Shown: positions 4,801 to 56,641, counted from the whole stretch's first letter. The stretch is DNA of 64,000 nt, filler included, from Rhizaria sp. SCN 62-66 (GCA_001724265.1; 5 parts of 5 records of this genome joined end to end with filler, not necessarily neighbours in it); one strand, 5' to 3'. Notes: generated by a model from the sequence alone, not told the origin. A program made the numbers and translations.

Positions 4801-7800
4801 AATGGTGAGTAAAGCCCAGCCTCAAAGGCGGCTGCGCTGTAGAAAGGCGCTGCTTCACTTGCGTATACGACGAACTGAGGATCACCAAAACGATAACGAT
4901 GAGCGGCCGACACGCTAGAAGTCGGCGTCGTTGAAGCCGATGTCTTAGTGGCAGTCATGGTTGGACGTGTGTCCCGATTAGTTAAATACGCGGGCCTGTT
5001 CGCCGCTAGACGCGCTGCACGTAACTCTTGATCGGCGGAGTAGCGCTCCAAGCCTGTCACTGCACGCGCACGCTTCTGCTCGGCCGCAGTTACAGCTGCA
5101 AGCAGCTGCTCGTTCGTAAGAGGCCTGGCTGTCACTGGTTGTGCTGCTGCAGGAGTCGCGGGTACAGGCTTTGTTTCTCGCGTCGCAGCCCATGCCAGTT
5201 CGCGCGCGCTGAGTGGCGGTAGCGGAAGGCGCACGCGTGGTGAGGCCGAGGTCACCGTCGGCGCGCGAGACATCATCATAATCTGCGCCGAAGCCGGGTT
5301 TGAGGCAATGCTTTGAACTTGATACTTTAGTCGCGGTAGCAGCGCGAGTATATCGTCGTAAAGCTCCCAAGCCGCCGGCGCGCGGAGGTAGTTGCGTTCA
5401 CAGTCGCCAAGATCCCACTGGAAGAGGTCGTTCATGCAGCTCGGATCACATATGCCGTCGCCGATGCGCGCCATGTCGCAGCGGCCGACGACGGCGCGGG
5501 TGGGCGCCGTGGACACCTCAGCGACAAGGCCCTGCGCGGGCGACCAGAAACGGTGTTGTGGTACAGGCGCCGTCACAAATACGTCGTCATTCAAGTAGAG
5601 GAAGTTGTCAGAAAGACCAGGAATGCGATGCAAGACTGCCTCGATCGCATTACTCGAGAACGATGGGGCGCTAATCTGTGGGTTGGTAAATAACTCGTCA
5701 TGTCTTACGAGTGTGACCAATGGGTGGGACGTATTGAGCCAAGTTGGAGCTTCTCCAGAAGTCACCAAAAAAATGCGGCGCGTCCATGGCATATGTGTGC
5801 GCAAGGACCGCATTGCGAACTTTAGCTCGTTCACATCACGGAAACGCTCCGCGCCAGTAGTTTCTACCATTTTGCCCGTGGCCTCTTTCAGCTGCCGTTG
5901 GCGCTCACTCTCGCTGCGACGGGTTGATACAACATGATACGCTTCTGTTGCCGTCGTCACGGGCATATCGGACTCCAAATCAATATCACTAGTCGCGTCA
6001 GTGTTAGCTTCGTCGCCAAGCTAACCATTGGCAGTGGCAGTGTAAGCCGCATCGGCACGCTCCTGTGCCTCACCGTCCCGGGCCAGCGCGGCCTCCGCGG
6101 CGGCGGCAGCGGCGTCGGAGTTCGTCTGGCGCGCAAGCTCTTCAAGCGCGGCTACGCGCGCCGCGGCTACAGTTGGGTCCGAACCGTTGACCCACGTAAA
6201 GACGGCGTCCATTGGCTCAATGCAAGCGGAGATAGGAGCGCGGTAGCCGAGCTGCGACTTCCAGCCAGAGCGCAATGACATGGCTGATACGCGCTCACGT
6301 GCAACGTTGCCTGAGGGACTGCTCATTGCTAATGGCGTCGTTAGTATCGGTGTTGGCAAAGGATATGCTCGGCCGGCTAGTGTACCACTGTCATTGACGT
6401 TGTTGCGCAGAAGCCATGGAACATATTCGTGCAGACGCTGTGGGGCGAAACGCTGCTCCAGAGCGGCCGCTGAAAGCGCCGTGCGCCCACCAGCAACATT
6501 GTCGGTGGCACTGACAACAGGCGCAGTGAATGCGTTATATACCGCGGCATTGGGTCCAGCTAAAAGCGTAGCAGAAAGACCAGCAGGCTGTAAGCACGTG
6601 GGGTTCACTGCCTGAAGATCAAACCCGTTCGCTCCGTTGATGTTGCGGTGGTCGCTCTCGAGGGGCACGTGCGACATATCGCGGTCGCTGAGTGTGTAGT
6701 GTGTGGGTGCGTACAAACACTGTTTGCAAATCGCGGGGTTAATGCGGTAGCCGCCTTTAGTGCTGCGGGACAGCGTGGGAACGAATCTGAAATCGCTGCT
6801 ATCGTTGTCACCAGGCGAGCTCAAACCGACACGGGCACTAACGCCATGAGCAATGCTTGCGCTTGCGCCTGGAGTAAACGAGTTAGAGCTTGGGTTGGAG
6901 GTCGTGTTAGGAGAGGAAGCGAGGCGAATCCAAGAAGCAGGTCCGCGTGACACGCCGTTATGCGAGTGCCAGTGCATTGCACGCGATACGACACCAGGCG
7001 CATCAGCAGAACTTGCTCCGCCACGAATAGATCGTGCTAATGCATTGGCGCCTCCTGTAGTCGGAATTATATTGTCGTTGTCGCTGCCGATGCTTGTCAA
7101 GGGCTTCGTGATGGAAGGTGAAGCCGCACGAGTGGGCTCAGTGGCGAGAACAGGCTCCGGCAGCGGGCAAGAGCCAGGCATATACATCGGTCGAAACTTC
7201 CCAGGAGTCACTGTCGCTAGATCTGTCAGGGCGTCCGAGAGTCTGGGTCCGCTGGCGCATGTGGGGCAGGACGTGCGTGAAACCTCGCGCCACGCTGACG
7301 CCGAGACATTGGCTAGAACAGCAGCGTCCGCAGCGGCGTCGGCGAAGACCGACGGCATGCGACGCGGCACCGCGGATGCAAGCGAGAGCGGGCGCGGGGC
7401 GAGCGTCGCGGCCGTAAGCGGCGGCAGTGACAGCGCGGCGCGGGCGGCGGTGTCAGCCAGCACAGGGCGCTCGCCCGCGCGCGAAAAGACGGAGCACGGA
7501 AGATTCGTGTAGAACGGAGGCGCGAAACGCGGGAAGAGTTGTTTGAGCAGCAACGGGGGCGTATATACGGATGACGAATCTGTCACGGCGTCAACCTATT
7601 TCGTGAATTGCAGCGCTGAGTTTACGAACGAAGGATCTTGCAGGAGCTGCAACACGGCATCCGCTTCGATGTCGGTCTGGTTTGACTCGCCAGCTATATC
7701 ATCACCCGCACCGTCGGACATAAAGAGCGCAGACGTGGACGTCACCGAGTAGGCCGACACCAACGACGTTGTCGTCGCGCCGATGCCGCTGTTGAGGTAG

Positions 7801-8579
7801 TATCCCATGGCGACATCGACGCTCACAAAGTCGTCAGTGGCGTTGTAGTCAGCGTTTGTGTGTGTCGCAATCAGCGCAGCGTGCACAAGGCGCATCTCTG
7901 ACACGGCGCTGCGAGTACTACCGGCGGAGTTTATGGGCGCAGGCGCAGGCGCAGGTGCGGGCGCAGGTGCAAGCGCTAATGAAGGCCCGGGCGCAGACGC
8001 TGGCAATGGCGACGGTGTGATGGAGGGGACGAGCGATGGTGCAAGCGGAGGTAGAGGTGTAGGCGAAGGCACAGATTCGGGTAATAGCGCAACGAATGAT
8101 GCCTTTATCGATGTCGGCGGATTGGGGGAAGGTAATGGCGCAAGCGAAAGTGTGGCGACCGCGGAAGTTGATAACAGAAAGGAACTATACAGCGCAAACA
8201 TCATCACTACGCAGGCAAAGATAACAATCAGGAGCAGACGGCTGTTCGAGAGAAAAATCATCCTGGGGCATGGAATGCACCAAAGCACCGTGGTGAAGGA
8301 GGCCGAGCCGCTGTCATCGTCATGAGCGTCGTCCGCAGCAGAGGGAATGTAGGCGGAGTCGTGAGCAGCGTAGTTGAGTGCCATGACGCTTGTGTCCGCT
8401 CTATGAAGCAAGTCGCTCTCCTCAAGGCAGCTGTTGTCATCGTCATCAGCAGTGCCAGTCGGGTAGGATCGAGCATTAGATATGCTGATTAAGTCGCCAT
8501 CGGACGACTGTGCAAACAGGGGCTCGTTTGAGTGCGCCGCATCGAGGTCTGAATAGTCCTCCTCCGTGGTCCACGGCAT
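1896..8579 (-). CDS. GNPTAB: GlcNAc-1-phosphotransferase alpha/beta-like Stealth-family protein (~2227 aa, read through 2 in-frame TAG)
   Basis: Three same-frame ORFs (7596..8579, 6021..7586, 1896..5978) separated only by single TAGs. Domains in GNPTAB order: N-terminal TM (LLLIVIFACVVMMFALY), Stealth CR1 (MDAVFTWVNGSDP), CR2 (RFRDVNELKFAMRSL...PSFSSNAIE...FLYLNDDVF), two LNR/Notch repeats (IGDGICDPSC...DLGDC; RDGVCDAAC...DGGDC), CR3 (PHVPFAINK...RFR), EF-hand (DADCDGVLRGNE), CR4 (FSCIND...RFPQKAPWE). Ends in TAA. Confidence 0.88.
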
Positions 8580-9130
8580 TGGGAGGCGGTCAGAGGCGAT
8601 AGAGATCGCTTATGGAAGAATTTGAAGAAATATTCTATGAAACGCAATACGTATGTTTTGGATAAATTGTTAGCAAGATCAGAAATCACGTGTCTCACTC
8701 ACTGGGCGACTGGCAAGGAGTTGGAGGACGGGTGGACTAGCGCAATGACAGAAATGCATAGGATGGCATTAGGCGACAAAATGCAGCCCTCGCTGATTAC
8801 GGACAAATTATTGGATACAACACATTTATGTTACAGCGATCAAACGCTAGCGTAGTTGTAGACAGTCTTTTAAAGCTAAAATGTATCCTGGAAGGAGCAT
8901 CTCCAGTGAACCAACCGACCCCACTCAGCCACCACCAATCAGGAAAGTTGCCTGGGTAGAGTGAAAGCAAGGGACTTTATGCATGTAGCGGAGGTTCATC
9001 CGTCTTAAAGTGGGTGATATTTGCATGAAATTGCAAACCTTAGCTGTCATAAAAAAATTCATCACGCTGATGTGTACATGATGGTGTGTATGTACCCCAT
9101 TTCAAGCAGGGCAGCGCTGCGAAAGCCCGA

Positions 9131-9760
9131 TCAGGGAGTTGACCTTTGACCAGATGATGACATATGTGTTGTTGTTACACTAATTGTTGTTGTCTGCCCT
9201 GACAACCTGCCTGGATATACATCTTGCGTTGCTGATGTTGTTTGTTTTTGTCGGCACTGGGCCTGAGCCTTACTGAACCAAATGAAACGTGCGACCGTTA
9301 CTTCGGCGCGAAGCTCCAAAGAAATATTAGTAATACTAGTAATAGCAGATCTCTGTGCGGGGTAACAACTGTACAGTAACTTCTCATATACCAAACCCTC
9401 GCAATATGCTGTTGATTTTTGTCACCCTGGACATGGGTGGTACATTATGATACTTAAACCAACGATCGTTGGCAAGCGAACCCAAACGTTATTGTACATA
9501 TGACCATGTTTGAAAGCATTGACTGGGCTGTGTATACTCACATTACCATCAAAAGAAGTACTTAGTATCACATTGCGGTTGTTTACAGTCGTGTCCTTAT
9601 TGTTCCTCTCATCCAACAAAATGTCGCCTTCAACAAGGGCCACTTGCTCAACGTCGGCACCAGCGTCGGCCGAAGCCTGGGGCTACGACTACACTACAAC
9701 TGAGAGACCTTGTTGTAATGATATGTGAGCTCTTCGAATGTTGATGTTTTGTCCGGCGAG
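9131..9760 (-). pseudogene. Possible degraded coding remnant of unknown family
   Basis: ORFs 9422..9643 and 9131..9394 share a frame and are separated by one TGA. The same frame extends upstream through two TAGs (9683-9685, 9689-9691). No recognisable domain. Confidence 0.2.
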
Positions 9761-10402
9761 ATGTCAGCTTGTTCCACAATATTTGTTAGCTCTACTTTGT
9801 TTGATGAATTTCATTCCAGAACGTGCTGCGAAACACATCATCACATAATTTACAATATTTGAAATGCGATATTTCGTTACTTTGATTTTGATCGAAATAA
9901 AATGACTTTTCTGCATTAAGCGATACATTTAAAAGTGTAATTCATCTAAATATGACTAAGATACATCGATAATCCCCGGGTTTACATTTCGACTAACTCG
10001 TGACCGAATCGGATCACAAGCTTATTATCGTAGTCTACGGCAAGGTCTTCCCAAACATAAAACTTTTGAGCACTTTTGAGCTGCACAACAGGTGACCAGT
10101 ATGAAAATCGACACAGCATTTTGAATGTCTGTATCTACATACTTCGTCGCGTAATGTGTGTGTAGCAACTCCATTGGTACTAAAAAAGCAGCATCGATTT
10201 AGACTGTTGATAATACTACTTCTCTGTGTCAATTCATGTAACAATTCGCTCGCGAGCGTCACTCTACCTCTCTCACTACCACTCCCTCTTCTTCAAACTA
10301 CCACGCTAATTACGGACAGAGGAGAAAGGCAAAGTTCACATCAGCACGTTGCTAAGCAAGACTAAATGGCTGTTTAAACCTTAGTGATTCGTCTTTGGGG
10401 AA

Positions 10403-11917
10403 ATGTACCACTTTGGGGGGCGTGGGCGCTCAAGCTAGAGTGCCTACACGAACTTCCTCATATCTCGTCCACACTCTGCTAATCCCTTGAAATGGATGCG
10501 CATCCTCACAGCTTGCGTTCAAATCAGCATCGCCTTGCTTGTGATCGTATCTATTAGCTTTGTGTTTTATGGTGTTGATCTATCTCTCTTGCGCGTCAAC
10601 TACAGCGTCAACTCGTTCACTGCACGCCCCTTCCGAGCATTCGCAAACTTCACTGACTCGCTCCCCGAGCGCGCCGTGCGCATTGCGCCCTTGATGAGCA
10701 ACGACGCCGAACTTACCCCGAAGCAGCGGAACGCGTTAAAAGATGCCACGCGCACTCACACTACGGCGCCGTTTGCTGGACGCGCATTGGCTCTCGCTGA
10801 CCTTGATGTTCCGACCTGGGCTTCGGAGCTGTCGCCTTTTCATCCCGACGTTGTGTCCGCGCACAAGCATACGAAGGCGAGTGGTCCGACTGGGAAGATG
10901 CTCATTGTTGTTCCATTTCGTGAGCATTCGTTTAATGTAGTCCGTGAACGCTCTGAGCACGTCCTAATGCTTGTCGAAAAGCTCGACACGCACCTGCGGG
11001 CCGTAGGCAAAGTTCCCGGTCGCGACTACGCGACGTTGATCGTAGAGATGCACGATCAGGATGTAGCCTTTAATAAGGCATATTTGCTTAACGCTGGTGC
11101 ATACGTTGCCACTGCGTGGGGTTACGACTACGTTGTGTTTCACGATGCAGACTGCTATCCTGCAAGTCTGCAAAACACCTATGACATGTCTCTGGAAGAC
11201 GACTTGCCCGTGCACTACTCGCCCACAATCAACGGCAACTACCTCATTCGCGGTAGTCACTTTGGTGGCGTGTTTGCGGCGTACACGAAGACCTACGCAG
11301 AAGTAGGCGGCTTACCAAACAATCTATGGGGCTGGGGCTTTGAGGACAACATGATGATGTATCGCTTTCACCGTCACAAAGGCTTTCGCCGACTGAACAA
11401 AACGGCGGGCAGCTATGACATTGTTCTGCACGAACGACCGACGCGTGTCAATAGGCGCAAAGTGCCCAGTGCGAGGAACAATGCCAACATGCTCTACCAG
11501 GTGGTTGCGCGCGGCAAGTACCCCGCCATCGCGCGCGACGACTACAAGACGCTCAACGCCACCATGCTGCGCTACGCACCGATGCCCAATCTGGGTGCGT
11601 TCCACTGGGTGACTGTGAGCCTAGACTCGATGGCTTACAGGCCCGAAATCGAGGGCCTGGAGAGCGTGGAGCTCACGGAAGCGCGTCTCTCTGGAGCGTT
11701 GCCTTCACTCGAAGAACTCGGACTGTGGACCGACGGGACGCTGCCGATTGTACCACCACTGACTGCAAAGGAGGAGGCGCGTGTTCGCGCGTTCATCGGG
11801 CTTGTGAGGCCATTCCGCGAGCGGCAGGTGACGCGGGCTGGTAGGCTTGAGACGCTTAACGGAGAAAATCTTGATGAAATATATGCTGAGAGCAAACGTG
11901 AAGAGAATGTTGCGTGA
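10403..11917 (+). CDS. Glycosyltransferase family 7 (beta-1,4-galactosyltransferase-like) type II membrane protein, paralog 1
   Basis: Motifs IVVPFR, FNKAYLLNAG, VVFHDAD (DxD), FGGV, GGLPNNLWGWGFEDN and an N-terminal TM. Start placed at ATG 10403 by reading through in-frame TAG 10436-10438; the alternative start is ATG 10496. Ends in TGA. Confidence 0.88.
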
Positions 11918-14995: not shown

Positions 14996-16546
14996 ATGGC
15001 GAGCCACACCCCAGAATCCGGCCGCCAACAGTCTTCCCTCGCCCTCAGCATGCTAAACTCAGAGAACCTGCAAAATCGCAAAGCTGTTCACCCATGGGTA
15101 TTTCTTTCAACGGTGGCTGTTTCTCTTGTATTCTTGATCTATATCTATGTTGCAGTGATTGGCATGAGTCCCTATATTGCTACGCAGAACCGGTCTCTCG
15201 CACGTATCGATGCCGTACCCTTCCGCGCCTTCGTTGCTTTGGATCCTAAAGCTGCGCTCCCCGAGCCCGCCGTGCGTCTGGCGCCGACGATGGTTTAGAA
15301 GACGCTTACAGACGAGCAACTTGCGCAACTGGATAAAGCAACGTGCGTGATTAAGATCACCCCGTGGGCGGGCCGTAACCTTACGCTGGACGACCTCTTG
15401 TTGCCCGACTGGGCGTCGTCGCTCTCGCCGCTACACCCCGACGTTGTGGCCGCGCACAAGAAGCAAAAGTCGCAGGGCCCCAGTGGCAAGATGCTCATTA
15501 TTGTTCCGTTTCGCGAGCACGCGTTTAACAAGCTTCATGAACGCTCGCAGCAATTGCTGCTCGTCGCGGCCACACTTGACAAACACTTGCGAGCTGTCGG
15601 CAAGGTTCCCGGTCGCGACTACGCGACGTTGATCATCGAGATGCACGATCAGGAGGTTGGCTTCAACAAGGGCTACTTGCTGAATGTCGGCGTTCGTGTG
15701 GCTGAGTTGTGGGGTTACGACTACGTCGTGTGCCACGACGCCGACATGCTTCCTGAGAGCCTCGAGAACACCTATGACATGGCTGCCGAGGACGACTTGC
15801 CTGTGCATTATTCACCTACGATCAATGGCAAATACTTACCTTACGGCAGCCACATTGGTGGCGTGTTTGCAGCGTATACAAAGTCGTTCTCCGAGTTTGG
15901 CGGCTTCCCTAACAACTTCTGGGGCTGGGGCTGGGAAGACAACTTCATCATGTACCGTATGATCCGCCACAAGGGCTTTCGGCGCCACAACAGCACGACG
16001 GGCACGTACCGCGTCCTCGATCACGAGCGCCCGCACGAGCACGTGCCCAAGGGGAAGAAGTGGACATCTAGGACGGTCCCCAGTGCAGAAAACAACAAAA
16101 ACGCCTTCTACGCCACCGTCGCACGCGGCGACCACCCGTTCATGCGCGACGACTACAACAGCCTCAACGCCACGCTATTACGGTATGCGCCGCTGCCGCA
16201 CCTCGGTGCGTTCCACTGGGTAACCGCGAGTCTGGACTCGATGCTGTACCGGCCCGACATCAGCGGCCTGGAGCCTGCCGCGCTGACCGAGGCGCGGCTC
16301 TTTGGCAAGCTGCCTTCTCTCGAACTGCTGGGGTTGCGGACGGACGGTACGCTCGCGATCGACCCCCCACTGACCGCGCGTGAGCAGGCCCGCATCAAGG
16401 CGTTCATGGCCCTGGCGAAGCCGCTGCGCGCCAACATGGTGACGCGCGCTGACCGGCTTGAGGAGCTCAATGGTGTCAATTTGGATCGCGCGTATGCGGC
16501 GTGGGCCAAATACGCAGCCTATGACGCCTTTACGACTGATTTGTAA
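14996..16546 (+). CDS. Glycosyltransferase family 7 (beta-1,4-galactosyltransferase-like) type II membrane protein, paralog 2 (516 aa, read through 1 TAG)
   Basis: ATG 14996 begins a TM-containing N-terminus that is in frame with the catalytic ORF 15347..16546 across TAG 15296-15298. Motifs IIVPFR, FNKGYLLNVG, HDAD, GFPNNFWGWGWEDN; colinear with paralog 1. Ends in TAA. Confidence 0.9.
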
Positions 16547-34000: not shown

Positions 34001-37000
34001 CGCGGGCAGCCGCGGCTGATTCCGGTTACGGGCTCGGACCTCGCTCCGAGCCCCGGCGGCCGCGTGTTCCATGCGATCAACACCGCGGCCAACGGGGACA
34101 TCTTCCTCTACGGCGGCCGCGGACACGGCGTCGGCGCAGTCGTGCGCCCCGACAGCGCCAACACGCCCGAGGTCGCGCTCAGCGCGCTGCCGGCCGCCGC
34201 GCCGTTCACGCTGCCGCTCAGGGGCCGGTTCAACGCGCTGATGACTGCGAATAGCCTTCATGCGTTTCTATACACTGCGGACGAACTCTGGGCTGCGGGG
34301 CTGCCGACACGGTTAAACCTGCCTACATTGGATATTATGGTGAAGCTGAGTGAGAATGCGCGGCTTGCACAAACTGGTGTGTGGACTGGTACAGGCTATT
34401 TCCGTGTCCGTACGATGCTGGTTGCGACGTCACTCGCGGATTTCTCCACCTCAGATGCGACTTTGCTTGACAACATTGAGAGTACCTTACTCGCGCAGCC
34501 TGGTCTCAAAATTGACCCGTCTAAGTGGGCGCCTGGTACTTACATGTCTATCAACACCCCGTATCTGAAGGACACCACGCTTGATCCTCCAACACTTGCT
34601 GCGGCGCAATCACACGTAAATGCTCTCCTGTACCTTGCTATTGAGTATAGCCTTGAAGGAGATGAGACGACCTCAACGACAGCGCGCTTCGGGCTTGAAA
34701 TGCGTCATAGTACGTCTACACGCTCTATGTCCCTGATCAAAGATGCAATGCCAGCCTCCGGATCAGCAGCCCGCAACTTTGACACTTACACAGCTCGCCC
34801 AGTGCTTGTGTTCCGGTCCCCGCTGCCCAGCCACCCTCTGACGCAGCCCCCGGTGACGATTTCGCGCCTCGCCGCGCCACAGCTCGATGACCTGTGGCAG
34901 TTCCAGCGCGCTAGCGGCTCTTGGCGTCTGCTGCGCGGGTTTCACGCCCCGATCACGCGGACTGGCGGGGCCCAATCTCGCATCGCTGATCCCTCGAGCA
35001 CGGACATGTTCTGGCCCGGCGCGCGCCTCGGCGCCACGCTGTCGATCCCGACGTCGAGCACACTGCTGGCGAATGTGGACTTCGAAGCGTCGCTTTTTCT
35101 CCGCGGCGGCTGGACCGTCGGCTCGACCCACGCTGCGGAGCGCGCGTTTTACGCCGACCCGGCAGTGGAGCGCAGTCTTGAGGACTGTGAGCAGCTGACT
35201 GTGCACGATGACCTCTGGACAATTGATGTTGTTCACGCCACTGGCAATCACGTTTGTGTTGACAGCACAGCGTTCGACTCAAGCATTTGCCACGCCCCCA
35301 CAGAGAACAATATGACCGCGCTGCTTACGCCGTGGCTGCCACTGACGGACACTTTCTACGGCGAGCAGCCTCGTCTGTCATTGTCGCAGTCTCAAGGCAA
35401 CACGTGCCCCGCAGGCTTTGCCGCGGACTACTGCAGCCTCGGCAACGGCGAGTGCATCGCCGGCGGCGGCTCAGCATTTTGCCACTGCAACAGCTACACG
35501 CAGGGCGCGCGGTGCGATGCGAGCAACCTTGCGGAGGTCAAGGCCAAGCTGCAGCTCGGCCACGGCTCAGTGCTGCTGGCTGGCGACGCGGTCCAGGCCG
35601 TGCTGCCCTTCGCCGCCGTCGCGCATCGGCCGGGCACCGGTGAGGTCTACAGCTTTGGCGGCGCCGTGGTCGACTCACACACCGGCTCCGCTTTTGCCAG
35701 CGCGGCCTTCACGCGCGTTGACATGATCGCCAACACGGTGTTCCAGATCCCGCGCACTCCAGGGTACGCTGTGACGCACGAGTATTCACAGATGTTCATA
35801 CCAACGTTACAAGCTGGCGGTATGTATGTGGCACCTATGGCACCACCACCGAGCCTGGAGTCTCACGCCTGGTTTTCACCAGACGGGGCCAACATGTATC
35901 TGTACGCTGATAGCTTTGTGGCACCGCCCGGTCTGTGGGTCTACTCTGTTCAGAACAAGGTACGCATTGAGCACGCGTTTGATGATGTTCGACTGTAATC
36001 CAGAGTATTTTGTTTATTGAATTGATGAAGGCATGCTTTTTCTCTTAAAATGTACCTATATATCTTCGCTACACCTCATTTTCATGCCCCCCTTCCCTCT
36101 CCATAATCGTCCATATTTTTATCATGCAATTCAACATTCCAGTCGTGGACGACGGCAGGCTTTGACCACTTGAGCTCATCGTACCCGTGGGGCTCTACCC
36201 CTTACAGATTCAACGCCGGTGGCGACGGTGACCAAGGCGCTGACTACCACCCCGGCGCGCGCCAAGGCTTTGCCAAGGCGTCATACTCCCGGTCAACCTC
36301 GGCGGACAACGACTCGATGTTCTGCATCTACTCGGGGTCTCAGTCGTACCTCTCTGGAGCCTATGGCGACTCTTATAACACGGACCTATGGTGTTTGTAT
36401 ACCACGACAAACACCACGACAGGGGTTCATGACGCAAAGTACGTTTTTACGAGCCAACTTAACCTACTTATTGTTTTGCCCTTCCATGGATATTTTGTGA
36501 CTCATTGGCATCTGACATGCGCAACCGTCTTTTGTTTAATCTTGGTCCGTAGATGGGCGCGCATGTCTGGTCTCTCCAACCTTTTAGCGAGTGAGTTCGT
36601 CCAGTCGGCCTCCTCCTCAGGCACTTATGCTCATACCAACAACCCTGGCGCGCGCCTCGGTGCCAGCATGACATTCTCCCACGACGGCCGCTTCCTCTAC
36701 CTCTTCGGTGGCTCGCTGCACGTTGCCTCTGTGAACGGCAACATCAGGCTCCAGCGTCCGACCCTCTTGGCCGACCTGTGGGTGTTCTCTTTCTCCGAGA
36801 TGCAGTGGGCATACCTCTCCGGCCCACTCACCTGGGCCGTGCAGGGCAGTGCGCACGCGCGCAGCACCGTCGCCACCGTCGGCGCATTCTCGCGGCTCCA
36901 GGCGCCTGGCGCGCGCGCCTACGCCAGTATGACGGCCGACGCCGACGGGCTCGTGTACGTGGGCTACGGCATGCGGCTGGTGCTGGCCGCAGGCACGACG

Positions 37001-40000
37001 CTTGACGACGGCGCGAGCGCGGACGGCGACGATGAATCGTGCCTTGACGGGACCGTATTCGCCGTGTTTGCCGAGCAGCTGCACAACAACACATGGACGC
37101 CCCCGACAGCCAAGGCGCAGCTCCTCGCCCCGGCGTCGCACGGCGTCGGCAGCGAGGTTGCCGCGTGGGCGTGGCTCGCAAGCCCTACAGCTCCCTTTGC
37201 GTCGAACGACGACGCCCGCCTTGGTGCATCGTTCTTGATGCTCCCTAACACAGTCGGCGCTGCAAACGCGGCGTATACGAACCCGTCTGCGATCCTTCTG
37301 CGCACGGGCGGCTTAACTTATCCGACGGGTGCGGCGCGCGCCGGTGGGCTAACGACCGCGTACCCGTTTTTCATGCATACAGCGCTGCAGTCAGACGCGG
37401 ACCAGTCTGTTTTTGTGGCGCTGACGTCACCATGCACGCATAACCCTTGCGCAAACGGCGGCAATTGCAGTGTTTGCACTCTTGCGACGTGTCTTCCCAC
37501 ATCGCCGACGCACTTCGTAGGCATGAGTACCAAGAGTTACAAGTGCATCTGCCCCGCCGGTTTCTACGGCGAGCACTGCGAGGTCACTCGCGCCCAGTAC
37601 GCCCCCCCAACCGCGCCCGCAGTGCCGGCCCTGGTCTGCGCCGGCGCCGGCAGCACGACGGCTGCCGCGCTCAACGCGCCGTGCACGTGCGCGGCGGGCA
37701 CCACGGGCAGGCTCTGTTCCCCGGTCACGGCGCGCGCGCTGGTGAACGTTGCCGACGGCACGCCGCTGCCTGGCGCGGTGCCGCGGTTCTTCGCAGCCAG
37801 CGCGACGACGCACAGTCTGTCCGCGGTGGCCGCCCGCGCTCTCGGGCTGCGCGCCGGCGCGACCGTGACGTTTATTGCGGGCGGCACCAGCGGCGTTGAT
37901 ACGAACATTATGACTGCCGCGGTCACTGCGCACTCGCTGACTGCGCGCAACAGCGTTCCCATTGCCGAAGACCGTACTCATGACGCGACCAAGCCGGTGC
38001 TGGAAACAGATGCTACCAAAGACACCGTTGCGTACACAGGACAGCACATGGGTGCCTCGCTGGTGTATTACCCACAGGGCAACTGCCTGTTCTTGTTTGG
38101 GGGCATCGTGAGTAACGGTGGCGACGACGTACGTATTTGTCGACACTACATTCACAACGGTAGATACGTCTCATTTTATTCATTGACATTAATATTTTTC
38201 CCACGTATTCTCACACCTTTTGTTTTGGACTTCTCTTTCTCATTTTGATAGCGCGAGTACTTTGAGCGCCTTTGGCGGATTCCTGTTGCCGCAGCATCGC
38301 TGAGCTTCCCCCCTGAGCTCCTCTCCGGTCGCAACCTCGACGCTAAGTCGTGGCCTATCATCAAACCCTCCACCGACCTTGTCGACGTTGGCGTCGTTGG
38401 CCACCAGCGCCGCCGCTCCTCGGCCGCTTACCCGGACGGCAGCCCCGGTGCGCGCGCCTTCCACAGCTCTGTGCTCGTCACGCGCAGCAACGACGGCCAG
38501 CAGTGGGTCTACACTTACGGCGGGCTGATTTCCGACGCCGGCACCTCGAAGGTTACCTTCCGCGGCGACATGTGGCGCTACTGCGCCACGCTCACCGGCG
38601 ACGTTAACTGGCAGTACGTCGGCTGCGCCACGGGTCCGAACTTCGTCTCCGACGCCAGGCTATCGTACGGCGAGTCGGTCACGCTCGCGACCTTCTGCCC
38701 GTCTGCCCGCGCGCGCGCCTCGCTTGTGGCGGTCGGCGAGACGCTCGTTCTTAGCGGCGGTGTCGGCGTCAACGGCGCGCTCGACGACATCTGGCGCTTC
38801 GACCTCGTGTCCGAGATGTGGACTCTGCTTTCCGGTCAAAGCCAAAAAACTCAGCCTTTGGCTGCGGACGTTGCGATTCCCCCTGTCTTGACCGGTCCAG
38901 TCAGCGCCCGCACGATGGGCTCGCGCTACGACCACGGCTGCGACGCAGCGCCCGACAGCGTGATGGTGTACTGCTACGGCGGCATGACTGCACGCGGTGT
39001 GTACGCCGACATTTACCGCTCTGCGGCGCCGATTGCCCTGTCGCGCGCGGTGCATCTTGCGAAAGTCGCCGACCCGTCGGCGCTGTTTTACCCGTTCCGT
39101 GACGTGGCGAGCGACGGCGCGACCCCAGGCACGGTTGTGAGCTTCCTGCCGCGCACGTTGCTTACGCAGGCGGGGCTGCTATCGAAGATGACGCTGCGCG
39201 GCATCACATACTACCTCACGCGGCCAGTCGATGCGCGCGTGTCGGCTAGGGTGACAATTGGGGTTGAAAATGTACTCAATGTACCAAGTGGCAAGTTGCA
39301 CGAGTTTGTCATGAGCAGTATCACGACCAAAAACCTTACGTTCGCGGATTTTGGGACCACATCAACCGAGTTCACGATGCCTTTGGAGCTTCCAATAACT
39401 CTTTCGTCAAATAGCGTCGGAATTATTGTTGCTCTAGAGGTCATCGTGCTGAACATTGACGGATGGTCCGGGCTTGGCAGCGGTGGGCAAATTGAGGAAT
39501 CACTTGCTTACGGTAGCTTCGAGCCAAGCAACGCTGCCCCTGATGAGCTCACCGAATTCCTTGTCTCAAGGACCAAAAACACGCATTTCGTCACAAACAG
39601 CGGTCTCACGTATGAGTCTGCGCTTGTGCCCCAGATGCGCCTCCACGTTTCTCCTCGTGGCGGCGGTTTCACACAGGGCCACGCCTCGAGCTCGGATCTT
39701 TTTAGCATCGACGCGGTGACGGGCGTGGTTGCCGCGCTCTTCGCGCCCCCCACCGGCGCGGCCCCGTCCGCCGCGGTGCTGTCCAAGACGCTGTCCCTCA
39801 CCGGTGTGATTCGCGCTTACGCCAGCGACCCCGTGATCGAGGACGCCGAGCTGGGCTACGGCGCGGTGTGGGCGGACACGCTCGACCGCGACTCCGACCC
39901 ATCGGCGCCCGCGAGCTACGGCGTGCTCCCAGTCACCCTGCCAGGGCTTGCGTCTCACGCGTTTGCGCTGGTGATTGACCCGACTGCGCAGTACGCCATG

Positions 40001-42231
40001 CAGGGCATCCCCGCGTTCACGCTCTACGGCGGCCGGTGGGTGCAGGAGACACCGTATGAGACGACAATGACGTCGGCGGTGGACAGGATCTCCGGGTTCA
40101 CGACTTTTTGGGCCGAGACGAACGACGCTACTAAACCACCGTCGAGGTATGCTTAGATTATCTGATTAGGTCTCTTTTATTACATCATTCTATCGATAGG
40201 ATCTTTCTTAACATCACGACCCATGCTGCTATTACTCGTATAACTGTCTTGTGCTGTCTCACTCTTCTTTTTTATTTCTTCTTTGCACCCTTTGCTTTTT
40301 TTTCTTAGTCCATTCGCAATGATGAACGTCAAAGTCCTCCACGCCGGCACTACATTGCCCCCGTACACGCCCCTCGTCACCCCACTGAATCCCTACCCCG
40401 TTCCCAAGGTTCCGCGTTTTACGGCGGCGATGCACGAGGTGCGGCTTACATTTGATACCCCGACGCAGCAGCCGCGCAATACGACTTCGGCGTCAACGAT
40501 GAACTGTTACGTCGTGTTTGAGCAAGCTTCGTCGCCAGACACGTACGGCGATGCGCCTCGTTGTGCCTGGCTCTCACCCACTGGTACGTTGAAAGTGTAT
40601 CCCGCTAAATTTCGGTCGACGTCACTTACTCTATTGTATTCGTTTTTAACTCGCTCGCAACTCAATATGATCTTAAGCTTACATGAGAACTTTTAATCAC
40701 GTTACCCACACAGTTTTCAGCATGGCGCTCGGCGCTTCTTTTACCGCCCGCATCGGTACTGGCTTTATCGTCCGCGCTGGCGCCATTCGCCTTGGCAGTG
40801 CGATCATCGACGGCGAAGTTCCTCTGTACCTCCCACGCACTGCACTTACACTTGCAGCGTCGTTAGACAGTCCACTTGTTCCTGTGCCAGTCGTCACGAC
40901 GCAAACCACGGTGGGGCCTTGCGACAGCCTTACTCTGTCGACCGCGGCTAGTACAAACAACGGCGGGCTCGCCTTTGTCTATGAATGGTCTGTCACGGGC
41001 TCAGCAGCGCAGACCAAGGCGTTTAATGACTATTTGAATGAGACATTTGGTGACTACATTGCAAACGCGACGTTTAGCGCGACCAAGTCCCCGATGTTCG
41101 CGCCTCTTCTTTCGTTATCACCTACCATGCTTGCAAAGGTCATGGACAAAGGGCAGACTAGCACCTTCACACTGACTTTGACGACGTGGCACGGTACAAC
41201 GCAGCAAACAAGCGTTGCTGTGACGCGGTCAACTGATCCTCTGCCACAGATTGCCATTGCAGGCAGCAAAGATGTCACAACACTGCCAACTCGTAACCTG
41301 CTTGTGAACGCACTGATCTCGCGTGTCGGTGTTTGCGACGCAGCGTCAACGCGCTACAATATATCGTACGCGTGGAAACAAGTGCTTGTGCCTGCTGACT
41401 ACAACACTTCGGTCGATTTCACCGGAAATTTGGCGTCGCTCCGTGTCCGCGCATACGCAATGAAGGCGCGCAGCGAGCCGTATCAGTTCAATGTGTCGGT
41501 TGTTGACAACACGAACAACCATTCCTATCCGAATTCAGACACAGTGTTTGTGACCGTGAACGCGTCACCGCTGCGCGCGTTGCTGTCCGGTGGCAACCGT
41601 GTGCATTCCGCGCAGGTACCGCTTACCCTCTCCGCCGCGACCTCGCGTGATCCTGACATCAACCCCGCGTCCGGCTTACCAAGTGGTTTAGCTTTTGCGT
41701 GGCAGTGCGTTGATGATCTCTCGCCGGCTGAACCATGTTTTGGTCACGCTACCGCAGCTTTCCTTGCGGATTCTGCCTTTCCAACTGGTGTGCTTACACT
41801 GCCGGCTACCGTGTTGACGAACAATGTCACTGAAGGAATCACCACACTTCGGTTCACTGTGACCGTGAGCAAGGCCGGTCGCCCCTCTGTCACAGCAGTG
41901 ACTCTTGTTTTTCTCGTGCCCGTAACTCCAGAGTACGCGCTTACAGTCGCACCGCCTGACCGCGCACAGTTGTTGCAGCAGAATCCCGTTGTGCTGACCG
42001 CGAATGTGTCTCGTAAAGACGGTGCCGCCACCACTGCAGCCAATGAGACGCACAAGCCGATCGCATTATGGTCGTGCGACACGCGCAATGCGAACCTGGA
42101 CGAGCCCGGACTGGTGTTGCACCGCGGCGCGGCGCCCGCGAGCGACGGCTCGGGCCGCATGGTGCACACGCTTACCCTCGCCGGCGAGAAGCTCCTGCCC
42201 GGCGTAGTCTACACGATGCGTCTCTCGCTGT
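31090..42231 (+). CDS. Large secreted/surface protein with Kelch-like repeats, EGF-like domains and a PKD/REJ-like region; 8 exons, 3' truncated, 2 in-frame TAG
   Basis: Signal peptide (IVLLLLVALSTAVHT). Frame-consistent exons: 31090-32475, 32630-33431, 33561-35959, 36143-36438, 36553-38128, 38252-40146, 40309-40583, 40714-42231. Repeated PGAR...LFGG...DLW Kelch-like motifs; EGF motifs (CANGGNC...CICPAGFYGEHCE); REJ-like PLRALLSGGNR...TLSAATSRDPD...FAWQC. TAGs at 31462-31464 and 32978-32980. Confidence 0.85.
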
Positions 42232-42331: not shown

Positions 42332-42336
42332 GCACT

Positions 42337-42377
<41 letters not shown>

Positions 42378-47078: not shown

Positions 47079-47149
47079 GCCGGTATAAGATAGTGGAATT
47101 CTGCGGCCCTCCTAAGGCTGAAACTCGGGTTCGATTCCCGGTGCTGGTG
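47079..47149 (+). tRNA. tRNA-Arg(CCT)
   Basis: Acceptor GCCGGTA/TGCTGGT, D arm AGAT-AGTGGAA-TTCT, anticodon arm CGGCC-CTCCTAA-GGCTG (CCT at 47111-47113), T arm TCGGG-TTCGATT-CCCGG. T9 terminator at 47154-47162. Confidence 0.92.
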
Positions 47150-47685: not shown

Positions 47686-49128
47686 TTACTTCTGCGTGGT
47701 CGCGGACGCGAGCCCGGCCTTGGCCTTGGCGGCCACGGCGCTTAGGTCCCAGAGCTTGACGGTGTTGTCGTCAGAGCCCGTGGCGACGCGCACCTCGCCC
47801 TTGCCCGCGGGCGCGGCCAGCGCCATGGCGAGCACGGCGTTGTTGTGTCCGGTGAGCGCGGCGAGGCGCTGGCCGTCGCGGCCGTCCCAGGCGCGCACTA
47901 CGCCGTCGGCCGCGGCTGTGACGAGCACGGGCAGCGCGGGCACCCAGGCGGCTGCCGCGACGCCGCCCTCGTGCTGCAGCGTCTGCCGCAGCATCCAGTT
48001 GCGCGACGGATCCCACACCTTGGCCACGCAGTCGGCCGACGCCGAGGCCAGCAGCGGCTGCCCCGTCGTTCCGCCGAAGGTCAGCGCCTCGACCGAGTCG
48101 CGGTGCGCCTCCTTGAGGCGCGCCAGCACCGAGAGCTTGCCTGTGCTCGCGCCCGCGAGCGAGAGCACATGCACGGAGCCGTCCTGCGCGCCTGACACGG
48201 CCAGAGGCTGGGTGGGGTGTTGCGCCAGGCAGATGACGCCGCCCTGGTGCACGTCGTTGCCGCCCTTGAGGGTCGCCAGCGCCTTGCCCTTGTCGGAGTC
48301 CCAGAGCGTCACGGTGCCGTTCTCGGAGCCGGCGAGCAGCAGCGCCGCGCCGCCAGGGCCCGTGACGCCGCGCAGGAAGAGCAGCGAGCGCACCGGCTCG
48401 CGGCGCGGCGCCGAGAGCACCTTGCGCGCGTAACCTGCGGCGACGTCCCAGAGGTGGACCAGCCCCTCGGAGTTGGCCGTGGCCAGACAGGGCGGCTCGC
48501 TCGAGCCCGCCGCCTGCGGCTGCCAGAGCAGCGTCTCCAGGTCGCCGTCGGCCGAGAGCTCGTGCAGCACCTCGCGCGCGGCGACGTCGACGATGTGGAC
48601 CGTGCCGTCCATGACGCCCACGGCGAGCAGCGCGCCGTCGGGCGAGAAGGCGACGGCGTTGACCGAGTCGGTGAGCCCGGCCAGCTCGAGCAACACGGCC
48701 GGCGCGGCCGGGTCTGAAAGGTCCAGCAGGTGCGCGCTGTCGTCGCCCGCGCCAGAAGCCACCAGCGCCGGGTTCGCCGGGCTGACGGCGACGCAGTACA
48801 CGGCGTCCTTGTGCCCGCGGTGCGTGGCCACGGACTGGTCGGGCACCTCAGCGTCGGCGTCGAGCTGGCCCTGCTCTTCCTCGCCGTCCGCGGCGTCCGC
48901 GGCGTCGGCGTCGTCGCCCTCGAGGTCATCGTCGCCGTACTGGCCCTCGTTGAGAGCGGCAGCAAGCGCGTCCGCGTCGACGTCGTCGTCGTCGTCGTCG
49001 GCGAAGTCGGCCGGTTTGGACTTGTCCACGGCCACCATCTCGGCGCCCTCCTCGTTCTCGATGTTCACCGCCGCCGAGCCCGTGTGCTGCATCTCCGCCA
49101 GCTCCTCCACAGGAACCTTCTCAGACAT
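47686..49128 (-). CDS. WD40 protein, AAMP/Sqt1-like (uL16 chaperone family), 480 aa
   Basis: Probable start ATG 49128 (MSEKVPVEEL). Acidic N-terminus, then DQSVATHRGHKDAVYCVAVSP...VASGAGDD and multiple GH...WD repeats, ending ATGSDDNTVKLWD. Ends in TAA. Confidence 0.82.
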   Translation of the reverse strand: MSEKVPVEELAEMQHTGSAAVNIENEEGAEMVAVDKSKPADFADDDDDDVDADALAAALNEGQYGDDDLEGDDADAADAADGEEEQGQLDADAEVPDQSVATHRGHKDAVYCVAVSPANPALVASGAGDDSAHLLDLSDPAAPAVLLELAGLTDSVNAVAFSPDGALLAVGVMDGTVHIVDVAAREVLHELSADGDLETLLWQPQAAGSSEPPCLATANSEGLVHLWDVAAGYARKVLSAPRREPVRSLLFLRGVTGPGGAALLLAGSENGTVTLWDSDKGKALATLKGGNDVHQGGVICLAQHPTQPLAVSGAQDGSVHVLSLAGASTGKLSVLARLKEAHRDSVEALTFGGTTGQPLLASASADCVAKVWDPSRNWMLRQTLQHEGGVAAAAWVPALPVLVTAAADGVVRAWDGRDGQRLAALTGHNNAVLAMALAAPAGKGEVRVATGSDDNTVKLWDLSAVAAKAKAGLASATTQK

Positions 49129-49869: not shown

Positions 49870-52800
49870 TCACTGCTTGCCCGCCTCGACCCAGACAAGG
49901 CGCGCACGCAGCCGGAGCCTGGCGTCGAGCAGCGCGGCGTGCGCGGCCTTATGCGGCGCGCGCCACCACGCGCGCGGCTGCGGCGCGGCGGGCGCGTCGT
50001 AGCGGCTCAGCGCGAGCAGCGCGCGCAGCCGCGCCGCGGGTACGTCCTCCTCGGCCGTCGCGCCCAGCGGCAGCACGGCGGCGGCCGCGCGTAACGCCGT
50101 GGCGTAGCTGGCGAGCAGGTGGCCCGGCACGCCGCGCGGGCCCATCACGGCCAGGTAGCGTTCCACCACGGCGCCCACGGCGGCCAACGAGCGCGCCACG
50201 GCCGCAGACTCGGCGCAGGGCAGTGCCAGCAGCGGCGGCGCCGTCGCCGCGGGGTCCAGCGCGTCCCACGAGACCGTGGGCGTGAGGCGGCGGGCCAGCG
50301 CGCCGCCCGCGGCCGCGGCGGCGGCGACGGGCAGCGAGTGCCGCGAGCCCTGGATGGGAAAGATGGCGTCGTCGTCCCGCTCCGCCAGCGACGCGCACAC
50401 CGACGACGACGGGGCAGTAGCTGAGGCAGCGCCAGCAGCAGCAGCAGCAGCGGCCGCGTGGTCGGGGAGGAGCGCGAGCGCGAGCGCGACGGCGTCGACG
50501 GCGGAGCGCAGCGCGCCCACCAGTGGCAGCACGTCGTCGCTGACGCTCGCCTCGTGCTCGCGGTTCATGTTGCTCGCGCCCTGCCGCGGCTGCGCCGACA
50601 GCGGCGCGGCGGCGAGCGCGGCGGCGGCGGGCGCGAGCGGCCGCAGGCCCAGCGAGGCCACCAGCGCCGGCGACAGCTGCAGCGCGGGCGCGAGCGGGTC
50701 GCTGCCGCTGCTGCCACCGACATCGCTGGCGCCGTCCGCGTCGTCGGGCGCGTCGGTCGCGCCGCCGTCGTGCCGCGCAGGACACAGCAGCGGCGCCGCC
50801 GTCGCCGTCGCCCACAGCGTCACGCCGCAGTCGCCGCCCGCTGCGGCGGCCTCGGCGGCCGCGGCGGAGGCCGCGAAGGGGCTGGGGAGGGCCACGACGA
50901 AGGGCTCCGCAACGCTACTGCTGGAGCTATTGTTGTTATCAGCCTTACCTCCAGACGCGGACGTCGTGGCCGCAAGTGCGGAGGGGTAGAGCGCGGGCAG
51001 TGCGAGCTTGTTCGCGGGCGCGACGGCGGGCAGCAGGAGCGCGGCCGTGGCCAGCTCGTCGGCGGCGACGGCCGCGGCAAAAGCCGAGTAGCCGCGCAGC
51101 AGCCCTGCCGCGGCGCCCACGGCGGCACCGCGCGCGACGGCGACCTGCACCAGCACCTGCAGATGGTCGAGCACCTCGCGCGCAGCCAGCTTCACCGCCA
51201 GCGGCCACGCGAAGTTGTACGGCGGCACGCGCCTGAGCCCGTTGGCGGCGCTCGTGTCGGGCGGCGGCGCGAAGGCGTCCAGCGCGAGCGCGGCGCAGTG
51301 CAGCGCGCAGTGCGCGCGGTCCACGGCCAGCGGCAGCACGGCGCGCAGCAGCAGCGTCGCGCCCGCCTCGCCCGCCAGCGCCGCGCCGGGGCCGCCGGGG
51401 CCGCCGGGGGCGCCTGGGCCGGCCGCAGCGCCGGCGCCGAGCCCGCGGACGCAGTCGGCCGTGGTGTCGACCGAGTCCGCGGCGATGGGCTCCGAGAACT
51501 GCGGCGCGAGCGCGGCGGCCGTTGCGAGCCGCGCCCAGGCGCAGACCTCCTCCGGCGTGTCGGCCGAGAGCAGCTGCGCGGTCAGCACGTCCACCAGCGC
51601 CTCGCGCGTCAGCACGGGCGCACCCAGCGCCGTCTGCGCGCGCGCGAGGTCCGCCGCCGACAGCGAGGGCACCGCGCCCGCGCCGGACGCGGCTGCGGGC
51701 GCGAACAGGCTCACCGGGCCCGGCAGCGCCGCCGCGGCGCTGGCGCTATCCTCGCCCTCAGCAGTCGCCGCAGCAGCGCTACTCTTGCTCTTGCTGTTCT
51801 TGCCGATGCTGCTGTTGCTGCTACTGCTGCTGCTGCTGCTGGGCGCGATGGAGAGAAAGTGCGTGGCGGCGGCGGGGACGGCGCGCGCGGCGGGCGAGAG
51901 GCGCGCGCGCGTGCCGGCGGGCGGGAGCAGGAACTGCGTCCAGGGCAGCAGCGCGGGCGCCACGCGCGCGGCGGCGAGCGCGGCCGAGAGGTCCGCCCAG
52001 TCCTCCGCGGCCTGCGCGCGCGCCGCTGGGTCGCCCAGCACGGCGCGCGCCGTCTCGAACGCGGCCTGCAGCGGGACCCCGGCGAGCCCGCCCGCCAGCC
52101 CTGCGCTGAGCCCCGCGCCGCCGCCGTGGGCTGCGGCAGGCAGCGGGTCATCGTCGCCGCGCGCGGGCCGGTGCCGCGGGTCACTGAAGCCGCTCGCGGC
52201 GATGTTGTTGTTGCGCGGACGGTGGTCGTCCTCGTGGTCGATAGTGCAGTTGTTGTTCTTGTTGAAGTTGTTGTTGCGGCGGGCCTCGAAGGCGCCCAGC
52301 GCGCCGTAGGCGCCGGCCGAGTCGCGGCCGCGGCGGGGCAGCGCGAGCGCGCCGCGGGACAGTTGCGCGCGCCCGTTGCCGCGCGCCATGGCCGTGGGCG
52401 GGGCCGTGAGCGCGCCCAACCCCAGCTCGGGCGCCAGCCCCGCGCCCGCCAGCGCGCCCGTCACGGCGGCCAGCGCGGCGGCGGGCGGCGCGGCCGCGCG
52501 GAGCGACCAGCCCGAGAGCGCGAGCGGTGCCAGCAGCGCGGGCGGCAGCAGTGCGAGCAGCTCGCCCAGCCCCAGCGCGGGCGGCGCGTTGGGCGCGACC
52601 AGGGCCCAGCAGGCATCGCGCACCCAGGCGCGCGCGGCGACGGCCTGCGCGTAGCGCGAGATGGCGCCACGCGAGGGCCGCGCGACGAGCATGTCGGCCT
52701 GCGCGGCGGCCGAGGCCAGCAGGCGCCGCCGGTTCATCGTCAGCAGCGTCTCGGGCTTCGGCGCCGCGGCCGTCGAGGGCAGCGCGGGCAGCACGTGCTG

Positions 52801-54427: not shown

Positions 54428-56603
54428 CCGCCGCCGCGGCCGCAGCGCCCCCGGCGCCGCGCCCAGTCAGCGCTGTTGCCATGGCGGCGGCGGTGGCGGC
54501 GCCGGCGGCGGCCAGCGGCGGCAAGGGCACCGCGCCAGCGGCCCGGGCGGCGGCGGAGGCGGCGTTGCTGGCCGCGGCGGCCGCGGCGTCGGCAATGCTC
54601 CCACCGTGCGCGGCGACGGCGGCCGCGGTCGAGGTGGCGGCCGCGACGGCGGCGGCCGCGGCGTCCGCGGCGGCCTGACCCACCACAGCAAGTCCGTCGG
54701 CTGCGGTATCGGCGGCGGCGGGCGCGGCGCAGGCCGCGGCGGCATCGGCGGCGGCCTGCGCGGCACTCGGCAGCAGGTAACCGACACCGCCGTTGCTGAC
54801 GCCGCCGCCACCGCCGGTGACGCCGGTGAGTCCGCTGGCGGCGGCCGCGCCGCCGGCGAGCGCGCTAGCGGCGCCGGCGGTGTTGGTCGACGTGTGGGGC
54901 GTAGTGCTGAGCAGTTGCGAAACAAACACCGGCATCACCACGCCCGCGCGGCCGACGCCGGCTGCGCCAGCCTTACTCTTCGACCGGGACGCGTTGTTCG
55001 CAGCACTCACACGCGAGCTAGAGTCGGTTGCGGCTGTCGGTGGGAGGAAGGCGTTGCTGTTGGCGACCGCTAGCAGCGCCCTTGCGTCGCCGACCGCGGT
55101 GCGCCTGGACAGCACATGCTTCACCGCCTTGGGTCGTCCGCGCCGCCGCACGCCCGCGTCTGCCCCCGCTCCCGCCGCCCCGGCCGAGGCCTCGCCCCCC
55201 CCGTCGAGACCGGCGGCGTCGGCGACGGCGGCCGAGGCCTCGAGTCGCGCCGCCGCGGCCGCCGCGGAGGCCGGAACAGCCGCGGGCGAGGCCAGCGGAA
55301 TCGGCTCCGGCGGCGGCAGCCCCTCGGACGCGGCGATCGCAGCGTTGATTGCGTTGGCGCGCGCCTTGTACTCCTGCGTCGAGGTGCGCCCGCGGCGCCA
55401 GCGGATCGCCGCCAGCGCCGGCCGCAGCGGCTTCCCGGCGGCCGCGGCGGCCTCGGCGGCTGCGGCGACGGTCGGGTTCACGTAGCTCACGAGCCGACAC
55501 GCGGGGCCGTTGCGGTCAGTGCTCGCGAAGATGGCCGCTTCGAACCCGCCGGGGGGGCGCACGGCCGTGCGTTCGTCGTACGGCACAAACTCGGCATCGC
55601 CCTCAGCAGCGGCGGCGGCGGCGGCGGCGGCGCTGGCGTGGACGGCGGTTGGTGCCGCCGAGGGGATGTCGTCGTCGGCGTCTGACTCGGCAGCGGCGGC
55701 AAAGCCGGGCGTATACTCGCCAAACACCGCAGCGCTCTAGTTGTCGTCGCGCTTGGCGCCCCAGCCCTTGGCCCTGGCGCTGGCGATGCTCTCGTTGACG
55801 GCGTGCACTGTGGTGAGGTTCGCAGCCAGCGCGGCGGCCGCGGCGACGGGCGACGACGACGGCGGCGCTGCCGCGACGTCCGTGGCCGTCTTATCCGCAG
55901 CCAGCGCCAGCGTGTTGAGCTCGCTGAGCGACGTGAGCACGGCCGGGTAGCGCCGGCGGGTCTCGGCCATGGCCGCGTCGATGCCGTAGAGCTCCGACAC
56001 ATCGCTGGTCAGTGCGTTGGGCGGCAGCGCGATGCGGCGCAGCGGCGGCGGGATCGTGGCCACCACGGCCGGGGTGGCGCCGATGAGCTCGAACAGGCTC
56101 AGCTGCGATAATAAGTGGGCGGGGGCGTGCGTGCTGACGCGCAGGTACGCGGGAGTGGTCGCGTCTGCAGTGTGTGCAGCGTTTGCCGCAGGCGCCGCGG
56201 CGGCGTCGGTGGAGTCTGCGGAAGGGTTACTGTACAGAGTGACGAGAGCGTTGTCGCCAGCAGCAGTGAGCAGATACACAGTCTGGTGCTCAGCCTGTGT
56301 CAGAGAACTACCGTAAGTTTCAGACCGCGACTGCGGCTGGCCATGGCCAGTGCGAGCTGCGCTCTGACTCCCCGTCGGGAGGATTGCACTCACACCTCCT
56401 TGTTGCTGCTTGACCTTGACCGCGCCCGGTGCAGGGATCTTATCGTCCAGAACGCACTGGATATACGCATCGATCCCGCCCATCGCGGCGATATCGCGCT
56501 CCACCGCCGCTGCCGCAGCCTCTTCGCGTGACGGCAGCGTGCGCACAGTGACCCCACCCACTCGCGCCACAACTGCGCTGACACGGGCCTTGCTGTCAAC
56601 GGT

Positions 56604-56641
<38 letters not shown>

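Follow-up and report, generated by a model that had tools for sequence, protein, structure and literature searches.

Does the organism behind this stretch of DNA read UAG as an amino acid while still ending its genes at UAA and UGA? The stretch – 64 kb attributed to Rhizaria sp. SCN 62-66 (GCA_001724265.1), composed of five contigs joined by N44-TTAATTAATTAA-N44 linkers and called the window below – was assigned such a code in a first-pass annotation that counted seven sense TAGs in five genes on three contigs. All seven triplets are present at the reported positions. Six of them are in frame within exons, with frame-0 coding scores on both sides, and these six are indeed spread over three contigs; the seventh, at 10436, lies in a 5′ leader, which reduces the number of genes to four. 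We regard translation of UAG as an amino acid, with UAA and UGA still terminating, as the best explanation and as probably, though by no means surely, correct. The part of the earlier claim that stands is that the TAG-interrupted genes look functional and must be read through, and that TAA and TGA end genes.

Six in-frame TAGs interrupt four genes

The following genes carry the in-frame TAGs.

1896..8609, minus strand: Stealth/GNPTAB-like gene, with Pfam CR1-CR4 and an LNR domain
14996..16546, plus strand: GT7 paralogue 2 (beta-1,4-galactosyltransferase-like), with Pfam Glyco_transf_7N and 7C
31090..42231, plus strand: Kelch/REJ gene, multi-exon, running off its contig
54428..59630, minus strand: E2F/DP-like open reading frame (ORF), running off its contig, with an E2F_TDP domain at amino acids (aa) 665-702

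The TAGs themselves, each referred to below by the position of its first letter, are located as follows, together with the leader TAG.

7596..7598, minus strand: TAG 7598, codon 338 of the Stealth/GNPTAB-like ORF, after the N-terminal membrane anchor and before Stealth CR1
6021..6023, minus strand: TAG 6023, codon 863 of the Stealth/GNPTAB-like ORF, between CR1 (aa 798-821) and CR2 (aa 922-1026)
15296..15298, plus strand: TAG 15296, codon 114 of GT7 paralogue 2, past the membrane anchor and ahead of the catalytic domain
31462..31464, plus strand: TAG 31462, codon 125 of the Kelch/REJ gene, after the signal peptide and within a beta-rich domain
32978..32980, plus strand: TAG 32978, in exon 2 of the Kelch/REJ gene
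55737..55739, minus strand: TAG 55739, codon 1298 of the E2F/DP-like ORF
10436..10438, plus strand: leader TAG preceding GT7 paralogue 1, whose Met and membrane anchor lie at 10496, 20 codons downstream

We scored the surroundings of each TAG with a codon-usage log-odds score trained on the TAG-free genes of the window. Frame 0 scored best over 100 codons on each side at all six in-frame TAGs, which bears out the earlier statement that the frame continues past TAG in normal codon style. The frame-0 score also remains above zero between each TAG and the in-frame ATG that follows, 13-267 codons on (6/6 sites), so that no later Met acts as a fresh start of coding. In three of the genes the TAG separates an upstream membrane anchor or signal peptide from the functional domains downstream – the domain-bearing parts are made only if the TAGs are read through. 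The TAG at 10436, which had been called a probable coding one, gave a different picture: the 100 codons upstream of it are non-coding in all frames and a Met with a membrane anchor follows 20 codons on, so that this is a leader-region TAG and provides no evidence for a sense codon.

The support differs among the six sites; at 7598, 32978 and 55739 it consists of coding statistics and ORF length. The Stealth/GNPTAB-like ORF is open over 2237 codons except for its two TAGs. TAG 32978 is flanked by 116 and 152 stop-free codons at a local guanine-plus-cytosine (GC) content of 0.67, and neither a homologue nor a Pfam match reaches this position. TAG 55739 is flanked by 1297 and 436 stop-free codons, and over the 267 codons to the next ATG the log-odds score is +93 in frame 0, the other frames scoring -202 and -182, in a region of ~75% GC that contains long chance ORFs in other frames too. 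The other in-frame TAGs of these ORFs (32627, 33437, 38249, 40154, 61482 and 61827) are splice-site or intronic.

TAA and TGA are confined to gene ends

Across 13,557 coding codons, frame 0 contains six TAGs (0.44 per 1000 codons), no TAA, no TGA and no frameshift, in agreement with the absence of exonic TAA, TGA and frameshifts asserted earlier. The off-frames (1 and 2) of these stretches contain 147 TAA, 131 TAG and 475 TGA. The count omits Kelch exon 3 (about 33560-35957), small exons and the N-terminal exons of the ERGIC gene; the ORF at 32414-35998, which contains Kelch exon 3, has no further in-frame TAG. Isolated stops counted in every frame, with at least 100 codons on each flank, came to 17 TAG, 15 TGA and 7 TAA; this tally was not used because chance ORFs in GC-rich off-frames dominate it.

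Gene ends supported by domain or homologue termini comprise three TAAs and three TGAs, with TAG at 0/6, and no coding segment in the window ends at a TAG. Seven TAA or TGA ends had been proposed; the six listed here hold, while the TGA at 29765 could not be tied to a supported gene.

1896-1898, minus strand: TAA end of the Stealth/GNPTAB-like gene, at a C-terminus shared with the relative's orthologue P0135
11915..11917, plus strand: TGA end of GT7 paralogue 1
16544-16546, plus strand: TAA end of GT7 paralogue 2
47686..47688, minus strand: TAA end of the WD40 gene
49870..49872, minus strand: TGA end of a 1485-codon GC-rich ORF
60829..60831, minus strand: TGA end of the ERGIC/ERV gene, with Pfam COPIIcoated_ERV matched to the last profile position

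Homology extends across two of the TAGs and brackets a third

Consistent with uninterrupted proteins, alignments run across two of the sites, and Stealth domains bracket a third, TAG 6023. The two GT7 paralogues share 60% identity over 467 aa (BLASTP) in an alignment that spans TAG 15296, and its sole gap near the site is a single residue, three columns past the TAG. At the position of this TAG, paralogue 1 has N, P0004 has S and P0005 has A. For the Kelch/REJ gene, exon 1 matched 11 of the 1.84 billion representatives searched, and four of these homologues align without gaps across TAG 31462, directly after the block SCQ(V/I)TL.P, with T, L, A and S in the TAG column. An AlphaFold model (7-row alignment, mean predicted local distance difference test score, pLDDT, of 73.9) puts this TAG in a loop flanked by strands 114-122 and 132-141. 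The aligned columns are variable and do not point to one amino acid for UAG.

The Stealth/GNPTAB-like gene has an orthologue in a relative, the 1787-aa P0135 encoded on a 113-kb contig, which forms one chain from CR1 to the shared C-terminus '...APWE'. The linker between CR1 and CR2 measures ~24 residues in P0135 and ~100 in the window gene (about 75 aa longer), and TAG 6023 therefore sits in a lineage-specific insertion.

Other observations concern the N-terminal domain of the Kelch/REJ gene. An alignment of the domain with itself for internal repeats scored 40, which is not above shuffles (mean 30 +/- 5, maximum 52). Homologues of this domain (encoded at 31090-32499) lie on contigs of 16-147 kb, yet they are called in short pieces. 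P0226 ends flush within a conserved block, and P0225, whose longest listed contig is the same 31-kb one, resumes 13 homologous residues on; P0214, which shares a 147-kb contig with P0222, stops just before the conserved PGTFCTV. These pieces, P0226/P0225 and P0214/P0222, would fit single in-frame stops in more genes, of this organism or of a close relative.

Weighing translation of UAG against the alternatives

If UAG is translated here, ribosomes would read it as an amino acid, presumably via a tRNA with anticodon CUA, and UAA and UGA would still terminate. UAG would then occur very seldom as a codon, at about 0.4 per 1000, and be tolerated where positions are unconstrained. What is seen is six exonic in-frame TAGs in four otherwise intact genes, with coding and homology across them; their translation, the decoding agent and the extension to the whole genome are inferred.

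A number of observations weigh against this reading. Only six in-frame coding TAGs occur in the 64 kb, which makes TAG rarer than any ordinary sense codon (6 against 22 for AGA), and neither of the two alignable sites falls in a conserved column (N/S/A and T/L/A/S). No TAG interrupts the 3767-codon kinase ORF of contig 2, and P0135 was called over its 1787 aa without any stop. The 64-kb window contains no tRNA with a CUA anticodon, only tRNA-Gly(TCC) and tRNA-Arg(CCT). The absence of TAG from six gene ends is not significant, with P of about 0.15 under ordinary stop usage as a rough estimate. A random-nonsense model with the codon usage of the window gives 59-61% TAG, so that six TAGs out of six have P = 0.04-0.05, which is weak alone. 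Among the differences listed between the window and the independent run X4, those within the GNPTAB-like ORF are all non-synonymous (4/4; T>K, M>V, M>I and Y>C at 4567, 4595, 4728 and 4894), and those in the TAG-free GT7 paralogue 1 are synonymous (2/2); the former are compatible with relaxed constraint, although the counts are tiny and lie in a poorly conserved spacer. The runs and metagenome contig that reproduce two of the TAGs (X2, X3 and L001, see below) may share samples with the source of the window. Lastly, in the UAG-only codes of Rhizaria sp. exLh and Iotanema spirale as described in PMC5304391, UAG is abundant and found at hyperconserved Leu or Gln columns, whereas here there are six in ~13,500 codons, none of them at a conserved column.

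The most prosaic alternative is that the TAGs are artefacts – assembly or sequencing errors, unrecognised in-frame introns, or boundaries between separate genes. Coverage is low (~4-8x in the runs compared), and TAG 6023, within its lineage-specific insertion, has an ATG 18 codons after it. Contigs from other assemblers nevertheless carry identical sequence: Logan contigs of X2/X3 show no differences over 4645-7044, which includes TAG 6023, or over 7130-7958, which includes TAG 7598, and the latter recurs in metagenome contig L001, equal to window 7312-11455 at 100% identity. An assembly artefact is therefore unlikely for 6023 and 7598. TAG 15296 is outside the contig pieces listed for other runs, and polyA RNA run X6 yielded short contigs elsewhere on contig 1, with none among the matches listed spanning a TAG. 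Errors, moreover, would yield TAA, TGA and indels too. As for introns, the AT-rich, strong-donor type of the window does not fit at any site: no AT-rich in-frame candidate spans any of the six TAGs, whose flanks have a GC content of 0.52-0.68 against 0.35-0.44 in introns, and the TAGs are therefore not intronic. An intron at 15296 or 31462 would not fit into the alignments with the paralogue and the homologues. We give artefact next to no probability. Nonsense mutations under the standard code, in genes freshly inactivated or present as null alleles, fare somewhat better; the predominance of TAG in the random-nonsense model and the four non-synonymous differences in the GNPTAB-like ORF both favour them; several assemblies also break at 15232 and 15342 around TAG 15296, maybe at a second haplotype. 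Such decay should have left other traces. In the model, 2.3% of substitutions create a stop, so that six nonsense changes correspond to ~266 substitutions, and with one indel per 20 substitutions at least nine frameshifts are expected; none was seen (P(0) <=1.4e-4), and decay is therefore unlikely. Non-coding DNA does accumulate indels, with nine gaps to 25 substitutions between the window and X4, against no frameshift, TAA or TGA in the 13,557 codons. The mutations would also have to have struck four of about ten genes, two of them twice, and TAGs 6023 and 7598 are within unbranched contigs. The true GT7 relic of the window, described below, is quite unlike the TAG genes. Taken together, we consider inactivation decidedly improbable.

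It is also conceivable that UAG is still a stop but a leaky one, through near-cognate or low-level suppressor decoding, which would give mostly truncated and some full-length protein – an ambiguous code rather than a reassignment. The extreme rarity of TAG, its restriction to unconstrained positions, the absence of a dedicated tRNA from the window and the weak constraint suggested by the non-synonymous differences in one TAG gene all fit this, and we allow it some weight while holding it unlikely. Against it, TAG is found at 0/6 gene ends, and without efficient readthrough three genes would lose all catalytic or extracellular domains. The six TAGs share neither a common +4 base (G, C, A, C, A, A) nor a local structure (fold z-scores -0.8 to +0.9), and signal-dependent recoding is therefore disfavoured. 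Repair of the mRNA, such as A-to-I editing of UAG to UGG (Trp) in filamentous ascomycetes at particular life stages, would explain why TAG alone appears and is a documented mechanism (PMC4817773, PMC10776026, PMC11156358). The likeness, as these reports describe it, is that genomic in-frame TAGs coexist with full-length protein and that TAG is affected far more than other stops (PMC4817773, PMC10776026). The described editing differs in touching a small fraction of genes, in a hairpin-loop context and always yielding Trp, whereas here a loop context is not evident: the A of the TAG is in a loop in four of the six minimum-free-energy folds and paired in two, and no TAG fold stands out from shuffles. 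Neither of the two alignable sites has Trp among its aligned residues. With ~14,000 genes assumed for Fusarium graminearum, 71 edited ones amount to under 1%. Against the 71 genes reported for that fungus (PMC10776026), four of about ten are affected here, and editing seems to us a rather remote explanation.

Returning to translation of UAG as an amino acid, a more specific version is that the organism, a free-living, GC-rich, non-ciliate eukaryote, is in the early phase of a UAG-only codon capture. A tRNA-CUA would exist, TAG would have disappeared from gene ends, and UAG would have re-entered at ~0.4 per 1000 codons at unconstrained sites. This proposal is a tentative one and we consider it rather doubtful; if true, it would bridge, as a naturally occurring intermediate, the standard code and the codes of exLh, Iotanema and phyllopharyngean ciliates, in which UAG is heavily used as Leu or Gln.

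Comparison with known UAG codes

UAG-only nuclear codes have been reported in Rhizaria sp. exLh (UAG=Leu) and Iotanema spirale (UAG=Gln), with 384 in-frame UAGs in 71 genes of exLh and, in both organisms, a predicted decoder tRNA with anticodon CUA that does not read UAA (PMC5304391). The window resembles these systems, as described there, in having in-frame UAG in nuclear genes and gene ends of UAA or UGA only (PMC5304391). The reported evidence for exLh and Iotanema came from transcripts, whereas ours is DNA only and from a GC-rich organism. If the amino acid were Gln, the formal code for the reading proposed here would be NCBI translation table 15, in which TAG is Gln and TAA and TGA are stops.

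Three phyllopharyngean ciliate lineages have been described in which UAG is Leu or Gln and UAA is kept as a stop, based partly on metagenome-derived genomes and with suppressor tRNA genes in two genomes (PMC11687900). These ciliates, by that account, use UAG widely as a sense codon, whereas here it is the rarest codon. The window differs from ciliates further in its ordinary spliceosomal introns and its 39-80% GC. Ciliate genomes are AT-rich.

Nuclear codes that give UAG and UAA different meanings are thus described in a handful of lineages (PMC5304391, PMC11687900). A literature search that left supplements outside its scope found no report of sense UAG in a GC-rich wastewater eukaryote. If confirmed, the organism would be a new lineage for a known type of code change, one that uses UAG unusually rarely. 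Codes that split UAG from UAA bear on how stop codons get reassigned, and a true case here would be a further independent one, outside ciliates and in an abundant wastewater organism; a UAG that is truly rare would let codon capture be tested against routes through an ambiguous intermediate. There is a practical consequence for public protein sets as well, where standard-code gene callers cut the proteins of this organism at TAG, leaving the 124-aa P0215, the 399-aa P0002 and the 1356-aa P0134.

Other features of the window

The contigs occupy the following positions in the window.

1-17585: contig 1
17686-29912: contig 2
30013-42231: contig 3
42332-54327: contig 4
54428-64000: contig 5

Their GC content ranges from 0.39 to 0.80, and all five belong to one GC-rich, intron-poor eukaryote. 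The gene set is eukaryotic: the Stealth/GNPTAB-like gene with its LNR domain, the two GT7 paralogues, a kinase and the Kelch/REJ, WD40, E2F/DP-like and ERGIC/ERV genes; eRF1 is not among them. Introns, seen on contigs 3 and 5, are few and 126-261 nt long (GC 0.35-0.44), with donors that are mostly GTACGT or GTACGC and acceptors of the form YAG after a pyrimidine run. The kinase ORF (17687-28987, minus strand) stays open for at least 3767 codons and extends beyond the end of its contig; it is mainly low-complexity, with Ala, Ser, Asn and Gly runs, and has a TKL-type kinase domain at aa 3265-3521. A search with the WD40 protein returned generic WD40 matches and one relative at 59%. Atlas leads on the lineage went in different directions, to diatoms for the ERGIC gene and to plants for the kinase, and do not place the organism. 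The two tRNA genes, tRNA-Gly(TCC) at 45388-45459 and tRNA-Arg(CCT) at 47078-47151, are both on the plus strand in an AT-rich intergenic part of contig 4.

The same DNA recurs in metagenome runs of five studies, which cover bioreactors, wastewater, activated sludge and fuel cells, and proteins of the organism are listed on contigs of up to 36 kb in public assemblies. A metagenome scan for further DNA of the organism returned three short contigs, all of them inside contig 1 of the window, and scans of genome contigs and viral contigs gave no match.

Contig 1 contains a third GT7 copy at about 9593-9716 (plus strand), frameshifted over two frames and with 50% identity to residues 180-220 of GT7 paralogue 1; this relic illustrates the appearance of a true pseudogene here. 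In the non-coding DNA of contig 1, X4 and the window are ~0.8% different, with frequent small indels, and an X4 contig joins 12668 to 12967, so that a 298-bp stretch is absent in the X4 strain. The Logan contigs of X2/X3 and metagenome contig L003 end at 15232 and the next listed X2/X3 piece begins at 15342; the break at 15233-15341, around TAG 15296, may reflect low coverage or a haplotype bubble. At the end of contig 1 (16437-17585), summed contig depth in DNA runs reaches 118-377, against ~4-8 elsewhere, with numerous variants and joints, and this is probably a multi-copy repeat where assembly halts. Depth is also high at 7632-8218, a GC-rich, Ala/Pro-coding low-complexity part of the GNPTAB-like ORF (summed depth 1256 in X4 and 417 in RNA run X6), presumably through cross-matches from repeats of other organisms.

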